This document shows positions 4,147 to 14,524 of a stretch of DNA of 64,000 nucleotides, piece after piece. The stretch is from NCBI GenBank assembly GCA_963793425.1, contig CAWCAG010000005.1, positions 224,001-288,000 on the forward strand. Direction: 5' to 3'. Both the position numbers and the translations under genes were made by a program. Every line of letters starts with the position of its first letter. Position 1 is the stretch's first letter. This stretch comes from an uncultured cyanobacterium. Its GTDB lineage: Bacteria > Cyanobacteriota > Cyanobacteriia > Cyanobacteriales > CAWCAG01. The notes under the pieces were generated by a model that was not told the origin of the DNA, did not search any database, and was given only the letters and a program-made list of their open reading frames with translations.

Positions 4147-4354
4147 GCTTCAAATTCAGCCACCTCAAAAACGGGGAACTACCCTTAACTGTAATCGGGG
4201 AAACCAATACCGCCACAATTAACCTGTGCTAGTAAACTGAATCTAGTATGACTCATCATCATATATAGTGATGATATTCTTCTATAGACTTCTAGGATAA
4301 AAAGTAGAGAATAATTGTCCTAAACACTATGTTGACTGCATAAGCGAAATAACA

Positions 4355-4570
4355 ATGGTTAAAAAAGAAGAGCAAACCTCCCCCCAACCTGCCCAAAAGA
4401 CACAACAAGAAGAATATCAAGAAGCACTATTAAAAACAGGTATTCAAGCAGCAAACTTACTCACCGAATTAATAGACTTAAAAATCATGCCAGACCCCCG
4501 CGCGAAAGAAATGGCTGATGTGGCTATAGAAGTAATTAAATTAGTAAATTCTCAATCTAGAGATACTTAA
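4355..4570 (+). CDS. 71-aa unknown protein, left copy of the direct repeat flanking the toxin array
   Basis: Core EEYQEALLKTGIQAANLLTELIDLKIMPDPRAKEMADVAIEVIKLVN is identical at protein level in the copy at 14311, with synonymous DNA differences, which implies coding constraint. Confidence 0.8.
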   Translation: MVKKEEQTSPQPAQKTQQEEYQEALLKTGIQAANLLTELIDLKIMPDPRAKEMADVAIEVIKLVNSQSRDT

Positions 4571-4813
4571 ACTATCAACAAGAAGCCCAACAACTTAATA
4601 CTAACTTTGAAGCAATAGATGATGGCAGTATAATAATTTATAAATTTCCGCAATCTTAGTTTCTGAGCAGGAGAAAACTAGGGAATTGCTCTGACGATAA
4701 AGTACATTTCTTCCCAAGTTGCCAAAAATTGGTGGTAAAGTAGGAAAAATTGCTCTGGGGTAAAAATCTTAGGGCAAAAGGCTTAACTTGGCAAAAGTTC
4801 CCCAGGATGAATA

Positions 4814-7800
4814 ATGGCTAGCTACGAACCAATCAAAAAGCCCAGTTTTCAACCTCCCCAGCATTCCCAACCATCAAAACAACAGCATCACCAAGTCCCA
4901 CCGCCGCAGCAAAAAAAGGGACAAAGCCTAGAAGAAATGGAAATAAGTCGCAAAAATGCCGAACGCCTTGGCGACCATATAGTTAACTTTTCTAAATCGG
5001 CTCCAACTCCAGCAATTCAAAGCAAATCAACCACAGAAAAACTTGGAGATAACAATGAGCAAGAAACTGAAGCTGTAGAAACTGAAGTAGTAAAGACAAG
5101 TAACACTCCTTCTACTCCTGAAACTCCTAAAGATAGTAACAATCAAGAAAATCCAGAAGGAATCAATGAAGGTACAACCTCACCAGAAACCTCAATTTGG
5201 TTACAACGTTCTCAGAATCTAGTCTTACAACAGCAGCAACAAAAGCAAGCTTTACTAGCACAAATGGGGGAAAGGTATCAAAGATTTCAAGCCGTAGGTA
5301 GTAATCTTTATAGCCCTGAAACAACATCTCAACTCCAGTCAGAAAACTTAACAGGAGAAGAAGTTCGCCTAGAAAACATTGAACCATCACAGATAAGTAG
5401 CACTCCCTCCACCCCAGAGCAAAACGATTCGGGCGCATCGATTCAAACTAAGTGTGATGTTTGTGAAGCTAAAGAAAAAGAAGAAACCTCAGAAGTACAA
5501 GCCAAACTAACAGTAGGACAACCAGGGGACAAATACGAAACCGAAGCAGATACCACAGCAGCCGAAGTTGTAAAACAAATCAACTCTCCAGCAACTGAGG
5601 AATCAGTATCAGAAAAGGTAGAACCAGTAGACCAACCGACGGTAATGCGTCATGGTGGAGAGCAAGGAGGAGGAGTAGACTCTGGTGTAGAGCAAAATAT
5701 TCAAGGAGCCAAAGGTAGTGGGCAGGAACTATCTGAAAAGATTAAAGAGCCGATGGAGCAGGCATTTGGGTCTGACTTCAGTCAAGTTAAAGTGCATACC
5801 GACGGTAATGCCAATCAGTTGAATCGCTCCTTAAATTCGCGGGCATTTGCTACAGGGCAGGACATCTTTTTCAAACAAGGAGAATACAACCCTGAGAATA
5901 CAAGTGGACAGGAATTGATAGCCCACGAATTAACTCATGTTGTACAGCAAAATGGTAGTAAAGTTCAACGTAAGTCAGATAACGAGCAACAAGACATTAG
6001 TTCAAAAGCAAATCAGGAATTGGGGAAGTAGAAACAGAAGCAAACACAAAAGAAATAGAAGTTCAAGCTATTGAACAACCTTCACTAGACAATCCTACTC
6101 AACCTCAGCAAAAAGAAAATCTCCAGAATCATCAACCGACAGAACCTCAGCCAGAAACTAAACCCCAAGAAAACCCTCCAAAGCTCAACCAGAGAATAAG
6201 TTAAACAAATCAATAGCCAAACTACCTCAAAAAGAAAACAAACTAACAAAAGCAGAAAACAAAATTGCTGATGCAAGCCTAAAACTAGGAATTAAAGCCA
6301 AAGTAATTGACCAAAAAGAAACTCAGTCACAAAAAGAAAACAAAGAGCCAAACAAACTCAACCAACCTGAAAACCAGGAAGTAGACTCAGCAGCAACACC
6401 TCCTACAACGGAAGAAGAAACTCAACAGCAAGCGAACCAAGAAGAAACACAAGCCCATAACCCGGAAGCGCCACAAGAAACAGAAGGTAATAGTATTGCC
6501 GTAGACATCCCAACCCCCAACTTATCTCAAAGAGATTCGGGTGTTTCTTTAGCAGATATGTGGCAACAACAGCAGGAGCAAAGTGACAATGCTGGTGGTA
6601 ACTTTGCCCAAGGCAGATCCAACAAAGAACCTAAAGCTGCATTAGAAGAAGCTCTTGCAACAAGCTCAACAAAAACTTACATCTCATTCCTCAACCGGTG
6701 CAAACCTACCAAAATCTGCATCTTTGCCTCAACCTCAAGTTGAGCAAGTTGAAAAACCCCCAACGGAAACTGCTGCTACTACAGAAGCTCCTGCTGTTAC
6801 CGACTCTGTTGCAGAAGCTACTTCTCTAGAAGAAAAACCAACAGATGTTGAAGCCGTTGCAGGAAGTTCTGAGCAAGTCACAGAAGTAGCAAAGGAAGGA
6901 GAAGCATCACCAGAGAAAGAGAAAGAATCAAGCTCCTGGTGAAACTGTACCTCAAACAGAAGAAAAAGTATCTTCGGAAACTGAAGCAGAATTAGAAGTA
7001 AAGGAAACAGAAGAGCCAATAGCTACAGAAGTAAAAGAGGAAGAAGTAGAAGTTCCTGAAGCTCAGGAAAAGCAAGCAGAAACAGAAGTTGAGGCTGAGG
7101 TTAAAGTAGCAGAAGAAGCTCTCACAGAGAATAGCCTTTCTCAACAAGAAGTTCAATCTGGTCAAGTTATTCAAAAGAGTGATGATGGCGACAACGAGGC
7201 TAATTTAATAGCCAAAGCCAAAGGTGTCTTAAACTCTTTGCGGGGTGATGCTCAAGGTAAGAAAGGTAAATTGCAAGGAGATGCTTCTGGGAAAAAGGGT
7301 CAAATAGATGGGGCAAAGCAGCAGCAAGGTAGTCAGATAGATGCTGGCAAGCAGGCAAAGGGTGCTGAATTAGATGCTGGCAAACAAGCGAAGGGGGCTG
7401 AATTAGATGCTGGCAAACAAGCGAAGGGGGCTGAATTAGATGCTGGCAAACAAGCAAAAGGTGCTGAATTAGATGCTGGCAAGCAGGCAAAGGGAGCTGA
7501 ATTAGATGCTGGCAAACAAGCAAAAGGTGCTGAATTAGATGCTGGCAAGCAGGCAAAGGGAGCTGAATTAGATGCTGGCAAACAAGCGAAGGGGGCTGAA
7601 TTAGATGCCGACAAACAAACCAAAGGTGCGGAACTTCAATCAGCAGTAGAAGGAAAAGGTAGTGAAGTAGAAGCAGGAAGCCAAGCTAAAGGAAACGAAC
7701 TGCAAACCGAAGCTCAAACCAAAGCGGCTGAATTGCAGGGGGAAGAAGCAGGGTTAAAACAAGAAACCACAGCTAAAGAACAAGAAATACAGACCAACGT

Positions 7801-13323: not shown

Positions 13324-14234
13324 TGCTGATGATAAATATCAAGGAACTAAGTTGTATTAAAAATAAATATTTTTATGAAGAACAACTGTTTACCGGAGTT
13401 GGATTTAGCACTTCTGGTGAAAAAGTTAATAATTTCAACAAATTTGAGAATGGAATTAACGTTGGTGCTTACCAATGTAAGTATTTTCCCAATAAAATAA
13501 GTATTCCTCATATAAACATAGATTATATTGACTTCACAGGAGAATTCTTAGATGCTTTTGCACTTTACAAAAACAAAAAATTTTCTGGCATTGCCTATGA
13601 GCTAGAAGATGAGGAAGATGTTTGTTTAGCCAAGCATCTTTTCAAAGATGGAGTACCAGTTGGTTCAATATCTTGGCATTCATCCGGTGAGAAAAAAAGT
13701 TTAAGACTTGAGCGAGAAGGTATTGTTCAGGTTTTTGGATGGTTCCCAGATGGTGCTTTAAAAGAAATGGAACTGTACTCTCAAGAGCAGAGTGAGAGAC
13801 TCATTAATGTTAGCTTCAATCAACCAAAACAGCTAAGAAATGTATGGATAGAAGAGAGTTATTTTGAGTGGATACCTAAGTATACAGCTAAACTTGAATT
13901 TCATTACCTTGAAACCGTAGATTCATTTAAAGATTTCACCATAAGTCCTACTTTTTCTTTAGTTGGTTTAGGAATAAACGATGCAGTATTTTGTGCTATT
14001 GGTTCCAATAAAAAATTTGGAAATTTATCTAAAATTACCATATCGAGAACTTCTATAAGTGAAGAAAGTTTCCTCAAGTTAGCAAACATAAATACTCTTA
14101 ACGAAGTTATTATCCGTGACAAAAATCGCCATTTAACAAATATTGCGAAAAATTTGAAGTCTATACGAAAAGATTGTTTGATAAAATTGAACGGACAAGA
14201 AATAATGGTATTTTATAATGCATTGAAGGAATGA
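13323..14234 (+). CDS. YwqK-like immunity protein (MORN-variant repeats) with possible LRR-like C-terminus
   Basis: TAATG overlap with the deaminase; repeats YEEQLFTGVGF / YKNKKFSGIAYE / FKDGVPVG..SWHSSG; AT-rich; C-terminal LSKITISRTSIS. Confidence 0.7.
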   Translation: MLMINIKELSCIKNKYFYEEQLFTGVGFSTSGEKVNNFNKFENGINVGAYQCKYFPNKISIPHINIDYIDFTGEFLDAFALYKNKKFSGIAYELEDEEDVCLAKHLFKDGVPVGSISWHSSGEKKSLRLEREGIVQVFGWFPDGALKEMELYSQEQSERLINVSFNQPKQLRNVWIEESYFEWIPKYTAKLEFHYLETVDSFKDFTISPTFSLVGLGINDAVFCAIGSNKKFGNLSKITISRTSISEESFLKLANINTLNEVIIRDKNRHLTNIAKNLKSIRKDCLIKLNGQEIMVFYNALKE

Positions 14235-14310
14235 TGTCCTTTTGAAACTTTTAGAATAACAAGTGTAGAAATTTTTCTCAATATGATATTTATTGTCTAA
14301 GAAAACAACT

Positions 14311-14524
14311 ATGGTTAAAAAAGAAGACCCAACTCCTACCTCCACCTCCCCAAAAAACATTACAAGAAGAATATCAAGAAGCTTTGTTAAAAACTGGTAT
14401 TCAAGCAGCTAACTTACTCACGGAATTAATTGACTTAAAAATTATGCCAGACCCCCGTGCCAAAGAAATGGCTGATGTGGCTATAGAAGTGATTAAATTA
14501 GTCAATAATAAAAATATAGCGTAA
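14311..14524 (+). pseudogene. Right copy of the 71-aa flanking gene, with one extra base near 14335-14340
   Basis: ATGGTTAAAAAAGAAGA start; after a +1 shift it reads QKTLQEEYQEALLKTGIQAANLLTELIDLKIMPDPRAKEMADVAIEVIKLVNNKNIA*. Confidence 0.85.

Follow-up and report, generated by a model that had tools for sequence, protein, structure and literature searches.

A probable polymorphic toxin-immunity locus with orphan cassettes on a DUF4157 carrier in a filamentous cyanobacterium

Analysis of the window, a 64,000-nt stretch of DNA from an uncultured filamentous cyanobacterium, indicated that it probably contains a polymorphic toxin-immunity locus built on a DUF4157 carrier and accompanied by orphan cassettes. 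The layout is familiar from other bacterial weapons, and the carrier here is tied to phage-tail-like injection machines. The ends of the island were formed by a direct repeat (4288-4600 and 14247-14506, 83% over 264 nt), which the preliminary description had missed and which contains both copies of a conserved 71-aa gene. The main gene was ordered as an N-terminal leader, DUF4157, a linker of low-complexity sequence and 11-residue repeats, a pre-toxin module, a helical adaptor, and a 110-aa terminal domain. The features of this part of the locus were as follows:

4355..4570, + strand: copy A of the small conserved 71-aa gene, an ORF 5' of the toxin gene
4814..6031, + strand: toxin gene frame piece 1, comprising the leader (roughly residues 1-110), a stretch rich in Q/E/T and DUF4157 (about nt 5729-5956)
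6022..6926, + strand: low-complexity linker in three further frames, read from stop to stop
6927..10531, + strand: frame piece 5, running from an acidic linker through the 11-residue repeats to the pre-toxin module, the adaptor and the presumed toxin domain at the end
7236..7726, + strand: tandem 33-nt (11-aa) repeats, unit AELDAGKQAKG, 10 copies at 33-nt spacing
8312..9221, + strand: another repeat zone, with SW...K.S-type units of 11/22 residues (families D2 and D4)
9443..9640, + strand: pre-toxin module, type A (WGHGILDFVG...WYAAEGDW...IPYLG)
9650..10174, + strand: helical KYGDE repeats and an Ntox1-like adaptor (about 9884-10160; Ntox1 PF15500 sub-threshold)
10175..10528, + strand: terminal domain of about 110 aa, presumed toxin (motif SQKIAPD..KGVHFN)
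10528..10983, + strand: immunity candidate 1 (151 aa), with an ATGA overlap with the toxin stop

The DUF4157 domain proposed in the preliminary description was recovered with the Pfam model PF13699 (eCIS_core; E 1.8e-31) at residues 306-381 of the ORF 4814-6031, and the long 11-aa repeats it reported correspond to the ten tandem copies at 7236-7726. After DUF4157, the carrier continued for about 1100 residues as low-complexity sequence and amphipathic repeats of 11 residues, with 66-nt repeats at 8840-9221; the 11-mers were apolipoprotein-like, under the Pfam cut-off. Matches to the leader were found elsewhere in the genome, four of them directly upstream of other DUF4157 domains. Of the nine DUF4157 matches in the genome, seven were followed in frame by a C-terminal part that was long and variable. 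The carrier is made up of a leader common to the genome's other DUF4157 proteins, DUF4157 itself, and a repeat-rich linker. The small conserved gene (copy A) matched no Pfam family in a profile search; its homologues (57-86% identity) were found downstream of the toxin-immunity pair in 7/7 related loci, where the canonical order was toxin, immunity gene, and conserved 71-aa gene.

The signature of the pre-toxin module, W-G/D-H-G-I-L-D-F-V-G, was present in three copies (repeat family D5) starting at 9443, 11021, and 11794, in agreement with the preliminary description. Copies 2 and 3 matched each other with tblastn E-values down to 7.7e-23, and no further copies were found by tblastn elsewhere in the genome. 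The module had no Pfam match. A query beginning with the module retrieved 1217 proteins at E<=1e-3, and in other phyla the module followed RHS repeats, WXG100_2, T7SS_signal, and DUF4157. Among 30 module-bearing frames from other genomes, the N-terminal partners were RHS repeats (11), WXG100_2 (1), T7SS_signal (1), subtilase (1), and DUF4157 (1); six of the 30 continued into PT-HINT, and the terminal domains included Tox-REase-3, Endonuclea_NS_2, and RNAse_A_bac. Judged from sequence comparison, the module is a true pre-toxin junction. The adaptor matched Ntox1 (PF15500) with E 1.7e-4 and 22.3 bits, under the 25-bit cut-off, and in relatives it was followed by any of five different known toxin domains; its AF2 model (pLDDT 82.5) had no PDB match. 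The exchangeable cassette would comprise the pre-toxin module (with a glycine-rich hydrophobic helix), the helical adaptor, the toxin domain of about 110 aa, and the immunity ORF.

Homologues of the terminal domain formed the ends of a CdiA-like protein (P0021), a PT-VENN protein (P0027), PT-HINT proteins (P0023/P0048), and DUF4157 proteins (P0001/P0013). Its AF2 model had a pLDDT of 90.3. No activity was assignable to this tip because it belonged to no Pfam family and its model matched nothing in the PDB (the best hits had E 1.0 in Foldseek and Z 6.2 in VIA). The reported ATGA coupling was found at 10528-10531, where the stop of the main gene overlaps the start of the next ORF, immunity candidate 1. 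This candidate had 16 homologue clusters, all unnamed or 'hypothetical', and was present in 1 of the 401 cyanobacterial genomes searched, namely the window's own. On one metagenome contig (L062), the only one outside this genome where tip and immunity gene occurred together, the same tip was followed by an ORF 75% identical to immunity candidate 1. The predicted complex of the tip with immunity candidate 1 scored 0.85, and the best control scored 0.01; 116 of 157 solved complexes attained the mark of the tip pair, as did 2 of 215 mismatched pairs. Three runs shared at least 95% of contacts, the pLDDT of the partner was at least 90, and the predicted interface covered tip residues 18-30, which hold the conserved motif. 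According to this model, the 151-aa ORF would be the immunity protein of the tip and would mask its most conserved motif.

Comparison with related loci showed that the 5' part was kept and the tip was exchanged, as the preliminary description had expected. The window and same-genus G001 shared 86% over the 300 aa preceding the module and 32% in the module, with no similarity beyond. The window and L062 shared 25% in the carrier, 61% in the module, and 82% in the tip (over 247 aa), while L026 and L062 shared 99% in the carrier, 78% in the module, and only 50% over 30 aa in the tip. As read from these alignments, the relatives have a constant carrier and swapped tips.

The two later copies of the module had no start codon, and each was followed by a different small ORF, as had been claimed. 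The features of the 3' part were as follows:

11003..11356, + strand: orphan 2, start-less type B pre-toxin fragment with an in-frame stop at 11045-11047
11394..11756, + strand: orphan immunity candidate 2 (120 aa), an ORF call
11794..13323, + strand: orphan 3, start-less type B module (in-frame stop 11917-11919), followed by a linker and a YwqJ-like deaminase (about 12997-13296)
13323..14234, + strand: immunity candidate 3 (303 aa), whose start overlaps the stop of the deaminase ORF (TAATG)
14255..14524, + strand: small conserved gene, copy B, in two frames with a break near 14342

Each orphan module began 25-40 nt past the stop of the preceding small ORF. Orphan 2 was a 102-aa pre-toxin fragment only, with no toxin domain, and shared 89% DNA identity with the module of the full-length G001 gene. 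Immunity candidate 2 had one other homologue cluster (73% identity, equal length) and no Pfam family. In orphan 3, the deaminase matched PF14431 with E 1.1e-13 and 52 bits (cut-off 25.9), and its translation had the HAE...PxCxxC motif. Immunity candidate 3 had eight unnamed homologue clusters. The YwqJ/YwqK pair, a deaminase toxin and its immunity protein from Bacillus subtilis, was compared here through the Pfam model PF14431 only. Orphan 3 resembles this pair in its above-cut-off deaminase with the cysteine motif and in the ORF overlapping its stop. It differs in that its carrier is not LXG, its module has no start codon and contains an in-frame stop, and the 303-aa downstream ORF matched no Pfam immunity family, having weak atlas leads to MORN/LRR only (scores 0.79-0.85). 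Copy B of the small gene shared 84% amino acid identity with copy A.

The orphans shared 62-73% identity with the main gene over 79 nt. Given this divergence and the in-frame stops, they look, at the level of sequence, like displaced former tips and not a ready switching reservoir; of the proposed cassette switching, the swapping of tips among relatives was borne out, but the orphans were degenerate. Orphan arrays were rare among the related loci examined. New tip and immunity cassettes have probably been inserted at the pre-toxin junction, pushing earlier tips downstream, where they would persist as two decaying orphans, one a bare pre-toxin fragment and the other a carrier of the YwqJ-like deaminase, with immunity genes still open.

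The main gene had been described as a single open frame of about 1900 codons; in the assembled window it consisted of five frame pieces separated by four breaks, which leaves DUF4157 unjoined to the toxin part as assembled. The DUF4157 ORF ended at 6029-6031, 25 aa past HExxH, and was followed by frames 1, 0, 1, and 2 (6001-6204, 6162-6743, 6646-6942, and 6890-10531), the last being a 1213-aa stop-to-stop frame that includes frame piece 5. The breaks were located near 6021, 6184, 6652, and 6926. Short-read metagenome contigs had one-base length differences at each break, in 3-4 of 4 runs, and these differences bring all pieces into one frame; the implied path was stop-free in the window's own letters over about 1900 codons. 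Over 5990-7389, about 38 substitutions separated the read-through contigs from the window, so that they may represent another haplotype; they all came from one study, maybe the source of the window itself, and are therefore not independent. The break in copy B also had a one-base length difference (3/4 runs), and over orphan 3 the contigs aligned without length difference. The four breaks are either assembly errors or a feature of one haplotype. An intact homologue was present in Microseira wollei (L025), where one open frame of 2079 aa contained DUF4157 (309-381) and the module (residue 1598), and P0017 (1856 aa) had the same domain order.

It is possible, though we consider it doubtful, that the locus is a decaying relic whose breaks are real in the organism. 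Its only products would then be a 405-aa protein of leader and DUF4157 and, perhaps, a toxin fragment lacking its N-terminal part, and the immunity genes would persist because they protect against neighbours' toxins. Such decay would fit the clustering of four breaks within about 900 nt, all (4/4) outside long homopolymers, in a window whose other long ORFs are intact, and the interruption of both orphans (stops confirmed by the contigs) and of copy B. Relatives were likewise interrupted: L024 and L027 between DUF4157 and the remainder, and G001, which had lost the DUF4157 domain, by frame breaks at other points of the gene, the equivalent of 6022..6926 being read there in one frame. However, a compensating one-base difference accompanied every break, about 1900 stop-free codons are unlikely in a long-dead gene, and the tip and immunity ORF were intact, with 82% and 75% identity to their counterparts in L062. 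Outside this locus, the assembly also had a sucrose-phosphatase gene split between two overlapping ORFs, which hints at assembly indel errors.

Returning to a functional toxin, the preliminary description had proposed delivery in trans or by an unknown route; delivery genes were found at three other places in the genome: a sheath, three tube genes, and two Pvc16-like caps at C7:39-47 kb; gp25, Baseplate_J, and Tail_P2_I at C9:197-202 kb; and a tube, CIS_tube, and VgrG-like spike at C5:326-334 kb. The nearest of them lay about 88 kb off on the same contig; 88% of catalogued eCIS toxins are within ten genes of the operon (PMC11297309). Most likely, the leader would load the toxin into a contractile injection system encoded at these places. 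In the cited part of a large survey, DUF4157 is a marker of eCIS toxins, with linkers often longer than 1000 aa, and is highly specific to eCIS, with an odds ratio of 2614 (PMC8213781). Excerpts of other reports state that AlgoCIS cargo is loaded by a disordered N-terminal part, DUF4157 being dispensable for loading (bioRxiv 10.64898/2026.05.27.728243), that two DUF4157 proteins co-purify with the thylakoid-anchored system of Anabaena (PMC8894136), and that DUF4157 toxins of haloarchaea, some of them encoded outside the cluster, show sheath-dependent secretion and have a downstream gene that neutralises them (PMC11566945).

A real toxin might instead leave by lysis, vesicles, or an unknown exporter and enter cells unaided, by means of its amphipathic repeats and hydrophobic module, with DUF4157 as a processing peptidase. 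Consistent with this are the distance to the injection-system genes, the occurrence of module and tips in toxins of the Rhs, T7SS, and CdiA types, which take other routes, the resemblance of the 11-mers to apolipoprotein-type amphipathic helices, and the hydrophobicity of the module (most hydrophobic 19-residue stretch, Kyte-Doolittle 1.46-1.79). G001 and L028 also kept the rest of the protein without DUF4157, none being detected in the 2055-aa protein of L028. We regard this route as unlikely, however, given the odds ratio for DUF4157, the seemingly full set of injection-system genes (sheath, tube, baseplate, spike, and cap), and a shared leader that matches the expectation for a system-specific loading sequence.

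Of the 'interbacterial toxin system' in the preliminary description, the polymorphic-toxin locus held; the interbacterial target had been deduced just from the immunity genes. Instead of competing bacteria, targets could be eukaryotic grazers or the organism's own filament (stress-induced cell death); the downstream ORFs would then only shield the producer while its toxin is still in the cytoplasm, prior to loading. In the cited excerpts, the Anabaena system fires only upon lysis or ghost-cell formation and co-incubation assays gave no target (PMC8894136), and validated eCIS toxins are lethal to yeast and E. coli alike (PMC8213781); deaminase/nuclease-type tips would also hit substrates universal to cells. 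We find such targets improbable, however, as the tips are common to CdiA-like and Rhs proteins and the best explanation for the survival of immunity gene 2 beyond its toxin would be that it protects against kin with this toxin, a role of retained orphan immunity genes established in Rhs/CDI/Maf systems in the cited part of the source (PMC4436062).

As far as the cited part of that source describes them, Rhs/CdiA/MafB loci share with the window a large carrier with a variable C-terminal toxin and an adjacent downstream immunity gene, start-less orphan tips that keep a short junction piece next to their own immunity gene, and the sharing of tips between differing carriers (PMC4436062). In contrast to these loci, the carrier in the window lacks RHS/YD repeats, haemagglutinin repeats, and a MafB domain, their place being taken by the leader, DUF4157, and the 11-residue repeats; its junction is the non-Pfam module and not a VENN or Rhs core motif; and its orphans are stop-interrupted and too diverged (62-73% over 79 nt) for easy recombination.

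DUF4157 as a polymorphic-toxin trafficking domain, downstream immunity genes, and loci distant from the injection-system cluster have already been published, so the novelty is narrower than first suggested. The preliminary description named no characterised system with this exact layout; in the cited portions of the papers on DUF4157 toxins and in the literature searched, orphan tip/immunity cassettes, the pre-toxin module of the window, and the terminal 71-aa gene are not described. The window also differs from these toxins in having its DUF4157 and toxin parts in separate frames as assembled. According to the same portions (PMC8213781, bioRxiv 10.64898/2026.05.27.728243, PMC8894136, PMC11566945), the known cargo, including AlgoCIS Cgo1/Cgo2, Anabaena Alr3311/Alr3312, and the haloarchaeal toxin-immunity pairs (PMC11566945), shares with the window a leader, DUF4157, a long linker, and a variable C-terminal toxin. 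Further likenesses are a downstream neutralising gene (predicted in the window), a locus that may sit apart from the structural cluster, and, for Anabaena and the window, a filamentous cyanobacterial host with injection-system genes.

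In the assembly as given, the main gene, described beforehand as one gene of about 1900 codons, was not a single open frame. Coding-looking sequence did continue past the DUF4157 domain, but it was divided into five frame pieces by four breaks, and DUF4157 and the toxin part lay in separate pieces. The features of the gene, of its downstream candidate immunity gene imm1 and of a 71-aa gene present on both sides of the island were as follows.

4355-4570, + strand: 71-aa gene, copy A
4814-6031, + strand: frame piece 1, the ORF holding DUF4157, then a stop
6001-6204, + strand: frame piece 2, stop-to-stop frame
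6162-6743, + strand: frame piece 3, stop-to-stop frame
6646-6942, + strand: frame piece 4, stop-to-stop frame
6890-10531, + strand: frame piece 5, stop-to-stop frame
10528-10983, + strand: imm1, overlapping the toxin stop
14255-14524, + strand: 71-aa gene, copy B

The breaks were compared with short-read contigs from four sediment-metagenome runs of one study, which may be the assembly's own source. Over 4200-4635, 4773-6019 and 7579-14308, contigs of one run (X1) showed 0-1 differences from the window, except for one divergent 334-nt record, and contigs of the other runs locally showed as many as 72. Across 5990-7389, about 38 substitutions and 9 length differences of one base separated the contigs from the window. 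Each of the four breaks (near 6021, 6184, 6652/6654, and 6926) coincided with a one-base length difference, and the other length differences (6605-6623, 6686/6696) cancelled out. The signs of these differences moved the reading frame from 2 to 1, 0, 1, and back to 2, and along this path the window's own letters were free of stops from 4814 to 10528. None of the four breaks lay at a long homopolymer. Because of the substitutions, the contigs must come at least partly from another haplotype. An intact form of the main gene very likely exists in the population; that the copy in the window's own genome is itself broken is a somewhat doubtful proposition.

Programmed frameshifting was rejected, since the four breaks were of both signs and had no common motif. 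A diversity-generating retroelement was rejected as the source of the substitution cluster at 5990-7389 because the listed changes were not adenine-specific. In copy B of the 71-aa gene, a one-base length difference was present near 14342 in three of the four runs. A sucrose-phosphate phosphatase gene elsewhere in the genome (contig C9, L063:16473-17226) consisted of two overlapping ORFs, one for each half of the Pfam profile; it is either a pseudogene or an assembly indel error, and it gives a hint of indel errors in the assembly. A stretch of 137 nt (4636-4772), located past the small gene and ahead of the toxin gene's start, was absent from the contigs of all four runs. It was single-copy in the genome, which ruled out a mobile repeat, and represents an indel polymorphism of what is likely the promoter or 5' leader region.

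Pfam analysis placed DUF4157 (PF13699, "eCIS_core") at residues 306-381 of ORF 4814-6031 (E 1.8e-31, 108.6 bits against a cut-off of 22). The 11-aa (33-nt) tandem repeats of the preliminary description were recovered as 10 copies at 7236-7726, with a second repeat zone reaching 9221. RHS/YD repeats, haemagglutinin repeats with VENN, and an LXG/WXG100 N-terminus were not detected in the 13 translated pieces (Pfam, E<=0.1); compared with Rhs, CdiA, and LXG toxins, the protein of the window has only the pre-toxin module in common.

In Microseira wollei NIES-4236, one frame of 2079 aa contained DUF4157 (309-381) and the repeats, had the module at residue 1598, and ended in a tail of 418 aa. DUF4157 was also joined with parts of the window's C-terminal region in five proteins of the library search [P0017 (1856 aa), P0093, P0098, P0047, and P0001], and in the window's own genome seven of nine DUF4157 matches were followed in frame by 150-1300 aa of variable C-terminal sequence. 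The same-genus genome G001 had the low-complexity linker in a single 599-aa frame, with frame breaks elsewhere in the gene, and had lost DUF4157 by a clean deletion (5529-6185 of the window had no counterpart). DUF4157 was likewise not detectable in the 2055-aa frame of a Coleofasciculus MAG (L028), and the domain seems dispensable in some lineages such as these two.

The first approximately 100 residues of the protein, the leader, matched other places in the window's own genome at 34-68% identity, and four of these matches lay directly ahead of other DUF4157 domains. Further matches in the same identity range, with no DUF4157 match reported, were found at C5:1674078, C5:1653367, C5:1505953, C5:2115707, C5:301048, C7:688342, and C9:505415 (contig:position); these may be additional cargo genes that have the leader but not the domain. 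Contig C7 also carried, at 671360-678026, a tandem of three DUF4157 genes (288, 576, and 596 aa) with a common leader and differing C-terminal parts, one of which stopped right behind the domain.

The pre-toxin module, recognized by the motif W-G/D-H-G-I-L-D-F-V-G, occurred in three copies (9443, 11021, and 11794), as previously described, and the rest of the genome had none. When 1.84 billion representative proteins were searched with 9443-10528 as the query, 1217 matched at E<=1e-3, of which 69 reached E<=1e-10 and 11 reached E<=1e-30; by these matches, the query divided into four parts.

Residues 1-100: pre-toxin module, no Pfam model
Residues 77-150: helical "KYGDE" repeats
Residues 148-240: Ntox1-like module, 22.3 bits, below the cut-off of 25
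Residues 250-360: terminal domain, motif SQKIAPD..KGVHFN

For the module, the Pfam search gave only a weak DUF6861/glycine-zipper match on the orphan variant. Among 30 module-bearing frames of other genomes, the carrier had RHS repeats in 11, WXG100_2, T7SS_signal, subtilase, and DUF4157 in one each, apolipoprotein-like repeats alone in three, and no family in 11. PT-HINT followed the module in six of the 30, and the ends included Tox-REase-3, Endonuclea_NS_2, and RNAse_A_bac. The hosts belonged to Actinomycetota, Bacillota, Pseudomonadota, Planctomycetota, and cyanobacteria. Module type A was present in the window's main gene, Coleofasciculus, and Microcoleus; type B, with a glycine-zipper insert, was present in both orphans, the main gene of G001, and Microseira. 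The hydrophobic glycine-rich helix of the module had Kyte-Doolittle values of 1.46-1.79 over 19 residues.

The Ntox1-like module did not qualify as a member of Ntox1 (PF15500), by its score and by its internal rather than terminal position. In five relatives it was followed by Ntox21, a YwqJ deaminase, Cytotoxic, CdiA_C, or Tox-REase-7; because it is internal and different toxin domains follow it, it was considered an adaptor and not a toxin. The AF2 model of the adaptor (9650-10186, pLDDT 82.5) had no Foldseek match (best E 1.5) and a best VIA Z of 5.1, and no link of its fold to known CdiA entry domains could be demonstrated by these two methods.

The 110-aa terminal domain, the tip, was also the end of a CdiA-like protein with haemagglutinin repeats, PT-VENN, and PT-HINT (P0021), a PT-VENN protein (P0027), two PT-HINT proteins (P0023 and P0048), and two DUF4157 proteins (P0001 and P0013). 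From its position and company, it was read as a putative toxin domain. It had no Pfam family; its AF2 model (pLDDT 90.3) had no Foldseek match in the PDB at E<=0.001 (best E 1.0), and the best of 48,161 chains in VIA-align reached Z 6.2, the matches being generic helical proteins; no function could be read from the model.

The stop of the big gene and the start of the 151-aa ORF imm1 overlapped at 10528 in the ATGA noted earlier. Homologues of imm1 formed 16 clusters, all cyanobacterial or unnamed. Among 401 cyanobacterial genomes imm1 was found only in the window's own, and the metagenome scan gave one locus (L062), in which an imm1 homologue stood behind the matching tip (tip 89% and imm1 75% identical). 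The tip-imm1 complex model scored 0.85 against 0.01 for the best control; that mark was attained by 116 of 157 solved complexes and by 2 of 215 mismatched pairs. The runs shared at least 95% of contacts, the partner pLDDT was at least 90, and the predicted interface took in residues 18-30, the most conserved stretch of the tip. The model supports, rather than shows, binding of the tip by imm1. Pfam searches of the small gene, imm1, imm2, and imm3 gave no family at the thresholds used.

The two later module copies (11021 and 11794) were start-less, in agreement with the preliminary description, and each was followed by a small ORF (imm2, 120 aa at 11394; imm3, 303 aa at 13323). Thus far the arrangement was that of orphans in polymorphic toxin systems, with start-less tips, a common junction, and an immunity-candidate ORF each; both orphans, however, were interrupted by an in-frame stop (11045-11047 in orphan 2; 11917-11919 in orphan 3). 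These stops were confirmed by one contig that covered 8821-14308 with one substitution and no gaps. The proposed layout of toxin, immunity gene, and orphans on a DUF4157 carrier was supported by carrier and tip swapping, the downstream ORF, and the start-less orphans, but the orphans are not open frames. Orphan 2 was a 102-aa module fragment with the toxin part absent, and imm2 had one other homologue cluster. Orphan 3 ended in a YwqJ-like deaminase (PF14431, 52 bits against a curated cut-off of 25.9), and its translation contained the zinc-binding H-A-E ... P-x-C-x-x-C motif (GLHAEVLAVN ... FPACPNC). The start of imm3 overlapped the deaminase stop (TAATG); imm3 had eight unnamed homologue clusters and weak MORN/LRR leads in the protein atlas (scores 0.79-0.85).

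A constant 5' part with swapped tips had been expected in related genomes, and this was seen between the window and G001 and between L026 (a related locus) and L062.

Identity of paired loci ahead of, in, and behind the pre-toxin module
Window and G001: 86% over 300 aa ahead; 32% in the module; none behind
Window and L062: 25% over 300 aa ahead; 61% in the module; 82% over 247 aa behind
L026 and L062: 99% over 300 aa ahead; 78% in the module; 50% over 30 aa behind

The module of the full-length gene of G001 shared 89% DNA identity with orphan 2 of the window. Both orphans retained about 15 codons 5' of "WGHG" and started 25-40 nt past the stop of the preceding immunity gene. On these sequence comparisons, the simplest history would be serial insertion of new module-tip-immunity cassettes at the junction, each pushing the old tip downstream, where it decayed. 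The cassette switching suggested earlier is, as a present-day process by homologous recombination, unlikely, because the orphans carry stops and shared only 62-73% identity with the main gene over 79 nt. Three joints in the contigs (9635>11992, 12031>12332, and 12359>14302) were each found in no more than two of the runs, their sides being 28-40 letters long at 88% likeness; they were not counted as evidence of recombination, since they may stem from a G001-like relative. Orphan arrays were rare: a second module copy was found in 2 of 37 related loci with the query of the window, and in one of eight cyanobacterial loci, weakly, with its own query.

A homologue of the 71-aa gene (57-86% identity) lay downstream of the toxin gene in all seven related loci (L021, L024-L028, and L062), and the gene was conserved across genera far better than the toxin genes preceding it; each related locus examined had it as its 3' end. 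In the window, the flanking repeat holding it was 83% identical over 264 nt. Its protein had no Pfam family and no usable match in the protein atlas. Exactly one ORF of 151-198 aa separated the toxin gene from the small gene in the six loci examined (6/6), so that the canonical order is toxin, immunity gene, and small gene. The two orphan cassettes of the window lay between imm1 and the small gene.

A broader reading takes the module (WGHG...WYAAEGDW...IP.G, with its glycine-zipper variant) as a common exchange-and-entry junction for injection-system, Rhs, and T7SS-type toxins in at least five phyla, at which cassettes would cross between secretion systems. The filamentous-cyanobacterial loci would then follow a fixed grammar of a giant DUF4157 carrier, a tip, an immunity gene, and the 71-aa gene as a dedicated helper (e.g., chaperone, loader, or regulator), and the orphan arrays would record serial tip replacement. 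As a whole, this reading is unlikely.

As the preliminary description stated, the window contained no injection-system genes; the search of the rest of the genome found them in at least three loci.

C7:39-47 kb: sheath, three gp19-type tube genes, a tail-chaperone-like gene, and two Pvc16-like genes
C9:197-202 kb: gp25, Baseplate_J, and Tail_P2_I
C5:326-334 kb: tube, CIS_tube, and a VgrG-like spike, about 88 kb from the toxin locus

Unrelated genes stood amid these genes, with a photolyase beside gp25 and the two Pvc16-like genes separated by a histidine kinase. Of catalogued eCIS toxins, 88% are encoded within about ten genes of a structural operon (PMC11297309); the toxin locus (C5:228-238 kb) lay outside that distance from its nearest structural genes (C5:326-334 kb). 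DUF4157 is described as a highly specific eCIS-toxin marker, often N-terminal, with linkers of more than 1000 aa (PMC8213781), and is counted as one of the polymorphic-toxin trafficking domains (bioRxiv 10.1101/2021.10.19.465003). According to the accounts of individual systems, two DUF4157 proteins co-purify with the thylakoid-anchored system of Anabaena (PMC8894136), and in a haloarchaeon the secretion of DUF4157 proteins, including some whose genes lie far from the cluster, depends on the sheath, and the gene downstream neutralises those that are toxic (PMC11566945). Loading of AlgoCIS is reported to need a disordered N-terminal part and not DUF4157 (bioRxiv 10.64898/2026.05.27.728243). Based on the injection-system genes of the genome, the recurrence of the leader, and the DUF4157 literature, delivery by an injection system in trans is the best-supported route and a reasonably probable one.

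Beyond the anatomy, homology, mosaic pattern, and machine genes observed here, the leader would steer the unfolded protein into the tube, and the long repeat linker would serve as a spacer or membrane-binding part. Entry into the target cytoplasm, where the tip would act, may be aided by the adaptor and by the module's hydrophobic, glycine-rich helix. In the producer and its kin, imm1 would block the tip, and the orphan immunity genes may be retained against the toxins of neighbours.

DUF4157-headed polymorphic toxins, their immunity genes, and their occurrence in filamentous cyanobacteria are already known; 18 predicted toxins are reported for the filamentous cyanobacterium Moorena (PMC11297309), and orphan cassettes are described for Rhs, CDI, and Maf systems (PMC4436062). 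In the papers examined that mention both DUF4157 and "orphan", the word never stood for a DUF4157 locus, and the wider literature search gave nothing closer. As far as these searches go, the orphan array on a DUF4157 carrier, the unmodelled pre-toxin module common to Rhs and T7SS-type toxins, the tip and immunity family, and the conserved small gene that closes the locus are new.

Injection systems are common in filamentous cyanobacteria, and their cargo and targets are largely unknown; for the Anabaena system, no target has been found (PMC8894136). The locus is a concrete candidate for a cargo family, with a recognisable leader in about 10 genes of one genome, and offers a new 110-aa putative toxin domain along with its predicted partner, a cognate immunity protein. 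Its pre-toxin module, not in Pfam, ties injection-system, Rhs, and T7SS-type toxins together, and the locus gives evidence of tip replacement with the old tips left as orphans, as known for Rhs, CDI, and Maf systems. Should the predicted action of the immunity genes hold, it would argue that kin or other bacteria are the target of at least part of the cargo of cyanobacterial injection systems. The conserved 71-aa gene that ends the locus is a candidate accessory factor, so far unstudied.

The island was flanked by Ser/Thr-kinase-like genes at 2788-4146 (+ strand) and 14872-16740 (- strand), whose products have linkers rich in proline as well as membrane or C-terminal domains; their homologues in G001 were about 530 kb apart and on a different contig from the toxin locus. 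Immediately to the left of the island lay a motif about 45 nt long (4208-4253), at which many contigs of all four runs ended or diverged; it had five partial copies elsewhere in the window's own genome (86-91% identity) and is a short dispersed repeat.
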